Below, in pieces: positions 37,755 to 41,514 of a stretch of DNA of 64,000 bases. Numbering within the stretch: the stretch's first letter is position 1; each line of letters begins with the position of its first letter. Where the stretch lies: assembly GCF_056746865.1 (NCBI RefSeq), contig NZ_CM163382.1; one strand, 5' to 3'. The translations under genes were made by a program, and so were the position numbers. The notes under the pieces were generated by a model. The model made no database searches, was not told where the DNA came from, and saw only the letters and a program-made list of their open reading frames with translations.

Positions 37755-38747
37755 ATGCAGAGCGATAAAGTGCTCAATTTGCCGGCAGGCTACTTTGGTA
37801 TTGTGTTGGGGACGATAGGGATGGGATTTGCCTGGCGCTATGCCAGCCAGGTTTGGCAGGTCAGCCACTGGTTAGGGGATGGGCTAGTGATTCTGGCGAT
37901 GATCATCTGGGGATTATTGACTAGCGCATTTATTACCCGACTCATACGCTTTCCGCATAGCGTGCTGGCGGAAGTTCGCCATCCAGTGATGAGCAGTTTT
38001 GTGAGTTTGTTTCCGGCAACGACGATGCTGGTGGCGATTGGTTTTGTTCCGTGGTTTCGCCCACTGGCGGTGTGCCTGTTCAGTTTTGGTGTCGTGGTTC
38101 AGTTGGCTTATGCCGCCTGGCAAACTGCGGGATTATGGCGCGGATCTCATCCTGAAGAAGCTACCACGCCTGGACTGTATCTGCCGACAGTTGCCAACAA
38201 CTTTATCAGCGCAATGGCCTGTGGTGCATTGGGCTACACCGACGCCGGTCTGGTGTTTTTAGGCGCAGGCGTTTTCTCATGGTTAAGCCTGGAACCGGTG
38301 ATCTTGCAGCGACTGCGCAGTTCGGGAGAATTACCCACGGCGCTGCGGACATCACTCGGCATTCAGCTCGCTCCTGCGCTGGTGGCCTGTAGTGCCTGGC
38401 TGAGCGTCAACGGCGGCGAGGGTGACACGCTGGCGAAAATGCTTTTCGGTTATGGGCTGCTGCAACTGCTGTTTATGCTACGTCTGATGCCATGGTATCT
38501 CTCCCAGCCATTTAATGCTTCATTCTGGAGTTTCTCGTTCGGCGTATCTGCACTGGCAACCACCGGTTTGCATCTGGGGAGTGGCAGCGATAATGGATTT
38601 TTCCATACGCTGGCGGTGCCGCTGTTTATCTTTACCAATTTTATAATTGCAATACTGCTCATCCGTACTTTCGCGCTTCTGATGCAGGGGAAATTGTTAA
38701 TCAGAACCGAGCGCGCCGTTTTAATGAAAGCTGAGGACAAAGAATGA
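37755..38747 (+). CDS. tehA: Tellurite resistance protein TehA (about 330 aa), membrane transporter
   Basis: Multi-pass membrane ORF; start taken at [15 protein letters not shown]. Confidence 0.85.
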
Positions 38748-39337
38748 TCATTCGTGACGAAAACTATTTTACTGATAAGTATGAATTAACCCGCACACAC
38801 TCTGAAGTACTGGAAGCGGTGAAAGTGGTTAAACCCGGTAAAACGCTGGATCTGGGCTGTGGCAATGGTCGTAACAGTCTTTACCTGGCAGCCAATGGTT
38901 ATGAAGTTGACGCATGGGATAAAAATGCCATGAGTATCGCCAACGTCGAGCGCATTAAATCCATTGAAAATCTGGATAATTTACACACTCGGGTCGTTGA
39001 TCTGAATAACCTTACGTTTGATGGGCAATACGATTTTATTCTTTCGACTGTGGTGCTGATGTTCCTTGAGGCTAAAACCATCCCAGGGCTGATTGCCAAT
39101 ATGCAACGTTGCACTAAACCTGGCGGTTACAACCTGATTGTGGCGGCGATGGATACCGCTGATTATCCATGTACCGTCGGCTTCCCGTTTGCCTTCAAAG
39201 AGGGAGAATTACGTCGATATTACGAAGGCTGGGAGATGGTGAAATACAATGAAGACGTCGGCGAGCTGCACCGCACCGACGCCAACGGTAATCGTATTAA
39301 ACTGCGTTTCGCCACGATGCTGGCACGTAAAAAATGA
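38744..39337 (+). CDS. tehB: Tellurite methyltransferase TehB (197 aa)
   Basis: SAM-methyltransferase motif ([15 protein letters not shown]); start overlaps tehA stop. Confidence 0.9.
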
Positions 39338-39638
39338 CCCGCTAAGAACAAGGCGCGTGATAATTCCCCCGCTGAGATGGTTTACTGTTCTTCTTTTCGG
39401 TAAGCATAATTTTTATCGAATGGATGTGAAATTAATCACAGTAGTCGAAGTTTTTTAGCAGCTTAACTTACTGAAATTTAACTACTGATGATTGACTTAG
39501 CCCCTTTTTCGGCATTGACTATGTCGTCTGAAAAGGGGCTGAAAAATTTATTTTCACCAACACTTTTTTTGCCACAACACGAAGCGGCGCTTTTTGCTAT
39601 AACTTAGAAAGTAATATAATCATCTCAGGAAACTATTC

Positions 39639-40307
39639 ATGCGTACCACATCAATTGCGAAAGTTGCAGCTTTATGCGGCTTGTTGGCTCTGTCTGGTTG
39701 TGCCTCTAAAATCACCCAGCCAGATAAATATTCTGGTTTTTTAAACAATTACTCTGATTTAAAAGAAACAACCTCAGCAACAGGTAAACCTGTTTTACGT
39801 TGGGTAGACCCGAGTTTTGATCAAAGCAAATATGACAGCATCGTCTGGAACCCAGTCACTTATTATCCGGTACCGAAACCATCTACCCAGGTAGGGCAGA
39901 AAGTTCTGGATAAAATTTTGAGTTATACCAACACCGAAATGAAAGAAGCGATTGCGCAGCGTAAACCACTGGTTACCACCGCTGGGCCGCGTAGTCTGAT
40001 TTTCCGTGGGGCCATTACCGGTGTTGATACCAGCAAAGAAGGGCTGCAATTCTATGAAGTGGTTCCTGTCGCATTAGTGGTCGCGGGGACGCAAATGGCG
40101 ACGGGCCACCGTACCATGGATACTCGCCTCTATTTTGAAGGTGAGCTGATTGATGCAGCTACTAATAAACCGGTTATCAAAGTCGTTCGTCAGGGCGAAG
40201 GTAAAGACCTGAATAACGAAAGTACGCCAATGGCTTTCGAAAATATTAAACAAGTTATTGATGACATGGCGACCGATGCCACTATGTTTGACGTTAACAA
40301 AAAGTAA
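39639..40307 (+). CDS. ydcL: Lipoprotein YdcL (222 aa)
   Basis: Lipobox LSGCAS. Confidence 0.85.
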   Translation: MRTTSIAKVAALCGLLALSGCASKITQPDKYSGFLNNYSDLKETTSATGKPVLRWVDPSFDQSKYDSIVWNPVTYYPVPKPSTQVGQKVLDKILSYTNTEMKEAIAQRKPLVTTAGPRSLIFRGAITGVDTSKEGLQFYEVVPVALVVAGTQMATGHRTMDTRLYFEGELIDAATNKPVIKVVRQGEGKDLNNESTPMAFENIKQVIDDMATDATMFDVNKK

Positions 40308-40341
40308 TTCCAGCTGCGCCATCGTAAGATGGCGCTTTTTA

Positions 40342-41514
40342 TTATCGGTTTCTGTGAGCGATTAAATTCAACACCACGTAACAAACGCCTCCGGCAATTA
40401 ATCCCCAGAACGCAGAACCAATCCCGACCAGCGTCAATCCACTTGCCGTTACCAGAAATGCCACCACCGCCGCGTCGCGCTCACGCTCATTATGCAGCGC
40501 CTGATACAAACTGCCGCCAATGGTACTCAACAGCGCCAGACCTGCCAGCATCTGGATCCAACTTACGGGCAGGGCAGCCATCATCCCGGTAATAGCACTA
40601 CCAAAAAGACCTGCGAGCAAATAAAAAATGCCTGCAACGGCAGCTGCCAGCCAACGTTGATCTTTATCCGGATGCGCTTCCGGGCTTTGACAAATAGCCG
40701 CGGTGATTGCCGCAATACCGACGGAATAAACGCCGAAAGGGGAAAAAACAAGCGCCAGCAATCCAGTAAACACAATCAACGGCGAAACAGGAGCCGAATA
40801 CCCGGCAGCTTTCATTGCTGCGATACCCGGTGCGTTTTGCGATGCCATCGTCACCAGAAAAAGGGGGAGTGCAACGCTCAGACTGTGAGCAAACGAAAAA
40901 TCAGGGGTAATATAAGTGGGGAGAACGGGGTTAAAGACAACATCATTTGTGACAACGTCACCTTGCGCCATAACGATCACGATCCCAATAATCATCGCGG
41001 CAATTACCGCATAGCGCGGCGCAACGGCCCTGGTTGCCAGCCATACCAGCAACATACTGCCACACAACGTAAATTGACCATCCAGACTGGCAAACGCCTG
41101 TAAACCAAAGCGTAATAAAATCCCGGCAAGCATTGCCGCCGCAAGCGAGTGCGGAATAATGCGCATCAGACGAGCAAAGAGTCCCGTTATGCCGCAGAGG
41201 ACTATTAACGCGTTGGTGACAATAAAAACGCCGATGGCTTCGTTAAGTGTTAATCCCTGTAATCCGGTGACCAACAAAGCCGCGCCAGGCGTTGACCATG
41301 CGGTGAGAACAGGTACGCGATACCATAATGTCAGAGCCAGCGTACTGACGCCCATTGCCAGCCCCAGCGCCGTCATCCAGCCAGAGATTTGTGCAGTGGT
41401 GGCTCCGGCGACAATCGCTGCTTGCCAGATTATTGCCGCTGAACTGGCGTAGCCAATTAATACCGCCAGAAACCCCGCCAGTAGCGTGGGTGGAGGAATA
41501 GAAAACAGACGCAT
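40342..41514 (-). CDS. ydcO: BenE-family (benzoate-type) membrane transporter (about 390 aa)
   Basis: Multi-pass membrane ORF; start taken at MRLFSIPPPTLLAGF rather than the longer ORF-track extension. Confidence 0.8.
   Translation of the reverse strand: MRLFSIPPPTLLAGFLAVLIGYASSAAIIWQAAIVAGATTAQISGWMTALGLAMGVSTLALTLWYRVPVLTAWSTPGAALLVTGLQGLTLNEAIGVFIVTNALIVLCGITGLFARLMRIIPHSLAAAMLAGILLRFGLQAFASLDGQFTLCGSMLLVWLATRAVAPRYAVIAAMIIGIVIVMAQGDVVTNDVVFNPVLPTYITPDFSFAHSLSVALPLFLVTMASQNAPGIAAMKAAGYSAPVSPLIVFTGLLALVFSPFGVYSVGIAAITAAICQSPEAHPDKDQRWLAAAVAGIFYLLAGLFGSAITGMMAALPVSWIQMLAGLALLSTIGGSLYQALHNERERDAAVVAFLVTASGLTLVGIGSAFWGLIAGGVCYVVLNLIAHRNR

Follow-up and report, generated by a model that had tools for sequence, protein, structure and literature searches.

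The palindrome located between the tehB and ydcL genes, in the 64,000-nt stretch of DNA analysed here (contig NZ_CM163382.1 of assembly GCF_056746865.1, hereafter the window), resembles several described types of bacterial element. Intrinsic terminators combine a stable hairpin with a short loop, encoded on the transcribed strand past the end of an operon, with a U-rich tract (roughly at least 5 U in 8 nt) that starts 0-2 nt from the stem, and a hairpin without this tract is not expected to bring about unaided termination by E. coli RNA polymerase. Stem-loops of another kind, reportedly described by Dar and Sorek in 2018, protect the 3' ends of Rho-terminated or processed mRNAs and are recognized as stable hairpins that close a 3' UTR and lack a U-tract. 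Palindromes also form part of dispersed repeats such as REP/BIME and ERIC, which are present in many copies, and of operators that overlap promoters.

When the tehB-ydcL palindrome was compared with these systems, features in common and differences were noted for each of them. Like the intrinsic terminators, it encodes on the transcribed strand, past the last gene of an operon, a stable, GC-containing stem-loop whose loop is short, and it occupies the slot that holds canonical ydcL-upstream terminators in other Enterobacteriaceae; unlike them, it has no adjacent U-tract, contains a 3-nt bulge in its stem and coincides with no Term-seq 3' end. With the 3'-end-protecting stem-loops it shares being a stable 3'-UTR hairpin devoid of a U-tract and kept by compensatory changes, although neither a Rho-dependent region (PMC7815308) nor a mapped 3' end was found at the hairpin, and it could be placed among them by analogy only. 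Like REP/BIME and other dispersed intergenic repeats, it is a palindrome lying between two genes of the same orientation, from where it could stabilise the upstream mRNA, but its sequence is unrelated to REP and it is single-copy in E. coli, for which a repeated or mobile element was rejected. Finally, its arms flank a -10-like hexamer and a reported distal transcription start site (TSS) of ydcL, as the arms of a promoter-overlapping operator could do, whereas its half-site centres are 32 bp apart, its substitutions obey RNA wobble and its orthologous positions keep the pairing and not the sequence.

The two flanking genes, both on the + strand, are tehB (38744-39337), the last gene of the tehAB operon, and ydcL (39639-40307), which codes for a DUF3313 lipoprotein. 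They were taken from the ORF listing and the RefSeq annotation, and the gene calls were checked against RefSeq, using the annotations of strain 118UI, which is identical, and of a K-12 derivative; neither RNA nor any other feature is annotated there in the tehB-ydcL spacer. The hairpin starts 160 nt past the tehB stop (39337). An earlier note on this DNA had described a perfect 10-bp inverted repeat about 100 nt upstream of ydcL, with an ATG between its arms, and all of this was found as described: the arms AGCCCCTTTT (39499-39508) and AAAAGGGGCT (39531-39540) are 100% complementary and 22 nt apart, the end of the 3' arm is separated from the ydcL ATG (39639) by 98 nt, and the ATG is present at 39521-39523. 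The gapped pattern formed by both arms was matched once in the 64-kb window and not at all in 100 dinucleotide shuffles. When perfect inverted repeats with arms of 10 bp or more and 3-30 nt between them were counted as a background, the window contained 19 seeds, located at 9 loci, and the shuffles 2.3 ± 1.9, so that such repeats are enriched about eightfold as a class and a lone instance is no proof of function.

Folding of the + strand with RNAfold yielded a stem-loop of 19 bp that extends over 39497-39542. Its outer helix pairs 39497-39509 with 39530-39542, and is followed by a 6-bp inner helix, CGGCAU/AUGUCG (39510-39515 with 39521-39526), which closes a 5-nt loop, UGACU (39516-39520); a 3-nt bulge, UCU, is located at 39527-39529. 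The 22-nt loop that had been attributed to the palindrome must therefore be corrected, as this spacer is mostly paired. The predicted energy of the + strand fold was -25.4 kcal/mol (z = -6.46), a value that none of 200 shuffles equalled, whereas the - strand folded with -16.7 kcal/mol, the + strand being favoured by 8.7 kcal/mol because three of its pairs are G·U. The hairpin was retained in both the MFE and the centroid structures of a 246-nt context. A scan of 38500-40500 with Rfam 15 produced chance-level matches, with E values of at least 0.48 and scores far under the gathering thresholds.

Conservation of the palindrome across strains, named in the earlier note as the way to check it, turned out to be high, the element being present in 5406 out of 5426 complete E. 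coli genomes and at all the other Escherichia loci that were sampled, E. albertii included. In the 5406 genomes, the 46-nt element was found at a median of one place per genome (maximum 2-3), and its aligned part was at least 99% identical in 4708 of them. Between 39483 and the ydcL ATG, the window does not differ from K-12. In four other Escherichia lineages, E. albertii among them, the arms are 90-95% identical, compared to 88-91% for coding sequence, and this identity near the coding level suggests purifying selection. The 5' part of the spacer reaches only 58-79% identity with other Escherichia and the promoter-proximal spacer 93-95%, the latter value being that of the whole 39483-39638 stretch, which is thus as conserved as the arms.

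The natural substitutions in the arms and helices mostly respect the RNA fold. Pairing of the + strand is kept by C39503T in strain JNE151685 and C39502T at locus L006 (C-G to U·G in both cases) and by A39531G in Escherichia sp. MOD1-EC7003 (U-A to U·G), and it is improved by T39509C in this same strain (U·G to C-G), by G39541A in ST131 and others (U·G to U-A) and by G39512A in 21AH004 and Nord58 (G·U to A-U). Three of these six substitutions (C39503T, C39502T and A39531G) would break the pairing of the - strand and the symmetry of the DNA. Alleles that break a pair were also detected, namely T39509G in O157, A39531T in ST648 and changes of the outermost A-U in several species. In E. coli, the specific bases G39512 and G39523 add pairs to the inner helix, and G39523 makes the -10-like region less TATA-like. 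Across an alignment of 11 Escherichia alleles, 92.8% of the cells were paired and two pairs showed double changes; the corresponding covariation score was reached by 15 of 500 shuffles, so that covariation within Escherichia appears supportive but not decisive, the sequences being closely related. In E. coli ET210 an IS1 is inserted in the 3' arm after AAAAGGGG (L087, 1554-2685), and the element is therefore dispensable. Local tandem duplications of hairpin segments were detected in E. coli FCI1 (L091), which may be an assembly artefact.

The comparison was extended to 80 ydcL loci from Enterobacteriaceae, most of which have a stable hairpin whose end lies about 95-105 nt upstream of the ydcL ATG. 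At loci with a gene other than tehB upstream, as in Enterobacter, Leclercia and Lelliottia among others, the hairpin takes in most cases the canonical form of a GC stem and a subsequent T run, typically with 4-7 T in the next 8 nt, and canonical terminators also fill the slot in some genera in which tehB is adjacent (loci L045, L053 and L060). In these loci, the position of the palindrome is that of the upstream gene's terminator across the family. In Salmonella and Citrobacter, the tehB-ydcL spacer has a length of about 150-175 nt and contains a hairpin of different sequence, also without a U-tract, which in most loci folds with a lower energy on the + strand than on the - strand (-19.9 vs. 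-9.1 and -25.9 vs. -18.4 in two examples). The alignment of 19 Salmonella and Citrobacter hairpins revealed a consensus helix of 9 bp with compensatory double changes in 8 of its 9 pairs. These hairpins have in common with the inner helix of E. coli the core CGGCA...UGUCG, and the sequence downstream aligns as well; therefore, the Escherichia hairpin is the positional homologue of those from Salmonella and Citrobacter, and probably a true one. As a separate observation, the last codons of tehB in Citrobacter (L010, L018 and others), ATGCTGGCGCG, resemble the 3' arm of the downstream hairpin, GTGCTGAGCGC, and can pair with its 5' arm, which is followed there by a U-run in the loop, so that an alternative long-range structure is possible in this genus.

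Regarding transcription termination, the earlier note had pointed out that no T-run follows the palindrome and that it would be an odd terminator, and on both points the sequence agrees with it. The tail after 39540 is GAAAAATTTATTTT, there are 3 T in the 8 nt after 39542, and the 3' flank of the hairpin is GAAAAAUUUAUUUU, the first six bases past the stem being GAAAAA; as no U-tract adjoins the stem, this is not a canonical intrinsic terminator. A consensus terminator scan of 39200-39800 detected no terminators, and the promoter/terminator scan placed nothing at the hairpin. In published Term-seq data from three conditions, OD 2.0 in LB included, no 3' end was located at K-12 1502100-1502599, nor did the same dataset list any under tehB or ydcL (PMC7815308), and the bicyclomycin data of the same work (Suppl. 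file 2) showed no Rho-termination region in this interval, in tehB or in ydcL. Low expression of tehAB could mask a 3' end in Term-seq; even so, its absence provides no support for a terminator or 3'-end reading. Since the U-tract is missing and no 3' end has been mapped, the element was not classified as an intrinsic terminator. The supplements of Ettwiller 2016 contained no match for the hairpin region, and in the literature on ydcL, on tehB with CRP and on tehB with terminator nothing was found on the spacer except a SELEX peak of the RpoS holoenzyme.

By SMRT-Cappable-seq of K-12, tehA-tehB (b1429|b1430) is a unit transcribed from the TSS at 1500535 and ydcL is transcribed from TSSs at 1502347 and 1502428 (PMC6131387, Suppl. 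Data 2), and no tehAB-ydcL read-through unit is listed in the operon table of that work. K-12 coordinates were transferred through the K-12 locus (L001) and its alignment to the window, a mapping that the proximal TSS confirmed. This proximal start, at 39610 (K-12 1502428), was reported in two datasets, PMC6131387 and Kim 2012 (PMC3415461; older coordinate 1500452, with the upstream sequence printed), and is located 7 nt past an extended -10 element, TGcTATAAC (39595-39603), leaving a 5' UTR of 29 nt; the RpoS SELEX peak in the tehB>ydcL spacer (PMC5493296) agrees with this promoter. The motif TTTGCTAT(A/T)A(C/T) was conserved in 13 aligned sequences from Escherichia, Salmonella, Citrobacter, Enterobacter and Klebsiella.

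Some further features of the proximal region were observed. The -10 of this promoter has C at -13, as in RpoS-type -10 elements, and a TTTTTnGnnCA box, conserved in the 13 sequences, precedes TTTGCTAT(A/T)A(C/T) by about 20-25 nt (39564-39603 in the window, and equivalent positions from L008 to L082). Expression of ydcL was reported to be down-regulated in a rob deletion under butanol (PMC7537768), and the box might be a site of the Rob/MarA/SoxS type, its match to the marbox consensus being poor by eye.

The distal start, known from a single dataset (PMC6131387; NC_000913.3 1502347), maps on the + strand to 39529, which is the last base of the bulge, and is absent from Kim 2012, where only the proximal ydcL TSS is present (PMC3415461). 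A -35-like TTGACT (39492-39497, + strand), invariant in the Escherichia alignment, adjoins the 5' side of the hairpin, and a -10-like GACTAT (39517-39522, + strand) is found at its apex, 19 nt after the former and 7 nt before the reported TSS. From their sequence and from the position of the start, both hexamers would form a promoter that is weak by consensus, with the 5' arm of the repeat in its spacer, at -30 to -21, and the 3' arm at +3 to +12 of the transcripts. Motifs for sigma-E, sigma-32 and sigma-54 were sought by eye near this TSS and none fitted. In transcripts starting here, which hold the 3' arm only, the hairpin cannot form, and no notable structure was predicted for their 5' UTR. 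At the apex, CATTGACTAT shows no variation within Escherichia (columns 21-27 of the allele alignment), which is unusual for a hairpin loop and is better explained by an overlapping promoter element; thus, part of the conservation has another cause than the RNA structure.

Other motifs were noted upstream of this start. A direct repeat, ATTGACT-N16-ATTGACT (39491-39520), with 23 bp from start to start, covers the 5' half of the hairpin; a single occurrence was counted in the window, against 0.02 expected, both copies are invariant in Escherichia and the first contains the -35-like TTGACT. It could be related to the -35 and -10 elements or represent a candidate site for a regulator. Further upstream, at 39425-39440, a perfect match to the CRP core consensus TGTGA-N6-TCACA (TGTGAaattaaTCACA) is also found once in the window, against 0.05 expected. 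Its half-sites do not change among K-12, ST131, O157, E. albertii and three other Escherichia lineages, in contrast to the variable N6 spacer (ATTAAT, ATAAAT, ATAAGT, ATGAAT) and to the flanks, which diverge. This CRP-like site precedes the hairpin by 59 nt and the distal TSS by 96.5 nt, the latter distance not fitting the usual helical phase, and no conserved promoter could be assigned to it, the candidate class II -10, TAACTT (39464-39469), not being conserved. No mention of the site was found in the literature on ydcL and on tehB with CRP.

The strand-specific pairing, its compensatory evolution in three genera, its constant position and the presence of canonical terminators in the same slot elsewhere lead us to read the palindrome as the stem-loop with which tehAB transcripts end, being either a non-canonical terminator or an exonuclease barrier that insulates ydcL, a reading to which we give about even credence. 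It is also favoured by the natural substitutions that keep the + strand pairing, by the near-coding identity of the arms and by the lack of a tehAB-ydcL read-through unit in the published operon table. According to this proposal, the palindrome would encode a + strand RNA stem-loop in the 3' UTR of tehAB, which would mark and protect the 3' end of this mRNA and would keep tehAB transcription out of ydcL. It might do so by ending transcription in a non-canonical way, with the help of a factor or in association with Rho, or by blocking 3'-to-5' exonucleases, rather than in the classical way of a hairpin plus U-tract, and in Escherichia the DNA of the hairpin would in addition be overlapped by the weak distal ydcL promoter. 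We infer from the conserved fold and its position that the hairpin ends or stabilises tehAB RNA.

The element is an ordinary gene-boundary element, so far unannotated, and no new kind of system. A more elaborate version would be a long shot: the stem-loops without U-tract downstream of tehB, maintained by compensatory changes in Escherichia, Salmonella and Citrobacter, would be dedicated factor-dependent elements, for example sites bound by a protein of 3'-UTR RNA such as ProQ, or hairpin-only terminators, and the one from Escherichia, with its embedded ydcL promoter and CRP site, would couple tehAB read-through, cAMP-CRP and ydcL initiation in a single module of 130 bp.

The same data have to be weighed against other explanations. 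The hairpin could be a relic, this is, an ancestral tehB terminator that lost its U-tract and was kept since its DNA overlaps the selected ydcL upstream region, with the distal promoter and the ATTGACT repeats, but with little or no present function. We consider this rather unlikely: the similar conservation of arms and surroundings from 39483 to 39638 (93-95%), the invariance of the apex, as for a promoter element, the lack of a mapped 3' end and the natural alleles with broken pairs or with the IS1 insertion are consistent with it, but compensatory and wobble-preserving changes in Escherichia and in Salmonella and Citrobacter are unexpected in an unselected structure, and the E. coli-specific G39512 and G39523 create inner-helix pairs, in the case of G39523 at the cost of TATA-likeness. 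That the arms constitute a DNA operator, on which a regulator bound at centres around -25.5 and +7.5 of the distal promoter, 32 bp apart, would repress or modulate it, is improbable. The arms do bracket the -10-like hexamer and the reported distal TSS, and their perfect 10-bp symmetry with a spacing of three turns would set them on one face of the helix. However, C39502T, C39503T and A39531G each affect one arm only and are exactly the transitions tolerated by G·U, and the hairpins found in this slot in Salmonella and Citrobacter have unrelated arm sequences with conserved pairing. In addition, the half-sites showed no symmetric conservation, and GCCCCTTTT is not enriched in the window, where 15 matches with at most one mismatch were counted against 16.8 expected. 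No E. coli regulator is known to have non-palindromic half-sites 32 bp apart. Thus, the protein-binding palindrome suggested by the earlier note is not favoured, as most natural substitutions keep the RNA pairing through G·U and break the symmetry of the DNA.

A position of the hairpin within the 5' UTR of a ydcL mRNA started further upstream, by tehAB read-through or from a promoter near the CRP-like site (39425-39440), seems quite improbable to us; it could then be a 5' stabiliser after processing, or an attenuator. Both the perfect, genus-conserved TGTGA-N6-TCACA upstream of the hairpin and the distance of about 100 nt from the hairpin to the ydcL ATG would suit such a role, but no ydcL TSS upstream of the hairpin and no tehAB-ydcL unit is listed, the candidate -10 (TAACTT) is not conserved and in other genera the slot holds true terminators of unrelated upstream genes. 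Very improbable is also the possibility that the hairpin terminates an unannotated small RNA, encoded on either strand of the Escherichia-specific segment, such as the Ssr15 predicted in Shigella. This sRNA was predicted from transcription units on the opposite strand of the SF1779/tehB spacer of S. flexneri 301 (PMC4782007), and a CRP-like site is close by; nevertheless, Ssr15 is not marked there as validated by RT-PCR, the spacer has no Rfam match, no RNA in RefSeq and no Term-seq 3' end even at OD 2.0 in LB, neither strand has a U-tract adjoining the stem and no sRNA in the spacer was found in the literature on tehB and sRNA. The element therefore does not qualify as a small-RNA gene, which would have its own promoter, a defined 3' end and a discrete transcript. 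The small-ORF element suggested in the earlier note does not stand, as the ATG of the loop (39521) is ATA in loci L004 to L007. A 39-aa ORF at 39488-39607 was rejected as well, its start ATG (39488) being ACG in L005, and no Shine-Dalgarno sequence was evident upstream of these small-ORF ATGs.

Being read as a tehAB 3'-terminal stem-loop, the palindrome would be the boundary element that separates the tellurite-resistance operon tehAB from the stress-responsive ydcL, a lipoprotein gene, which gives a concrete reading, of modest importance, to an unannotated and genus-conserved structure in the best-studied bacterial genome. A specialist will find no surprise here. The locus provides a clean example from nature of a hairpin at a gene end that is conserved, lacks a U-tract and shows compensatory evolution across three genera, and hairpins of this kind help to calibrate terminator predictors and bear on the debate about processed versus terminated 3' ends. 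The mapped TSS that overlaps the hairpin apex illustrates how DNA in the slot of a terminator can take on the role of a promoter.

Minor observations were made on the surroundings of the hairpin. A segment of about 140 nt (39338-39482), from the tehB stop to the hairpin, is present in E. coli, in other Escherichia lineages and in E. albertii, and is missing from Escherichia sp. MOD1-EC7003 (L003), Salmonella, Citrobacter and other genera. It diverges fast (58-79% identity) except for the CRP-like site, and its start may be a degenerate duplicate of the 3' end of tehB (39322-39347 vs. 39352-39377, 73% identical), a similarity that could be due to chance. On the other side of ydcL, K-12 carries an IS609-type element (a tnpA pseudogene plus insQ/tnpB) between ydcL and ydcO (L001, 4069-5710), which is not present at the corresponding place of the window strain (40308-40341), where ydcL is directly followed by ydcO, and a ydcL-insQ co-transcript that starts at the distal TSS is listed in the SMRT-Cappable-seq operon table (PMC6131387).
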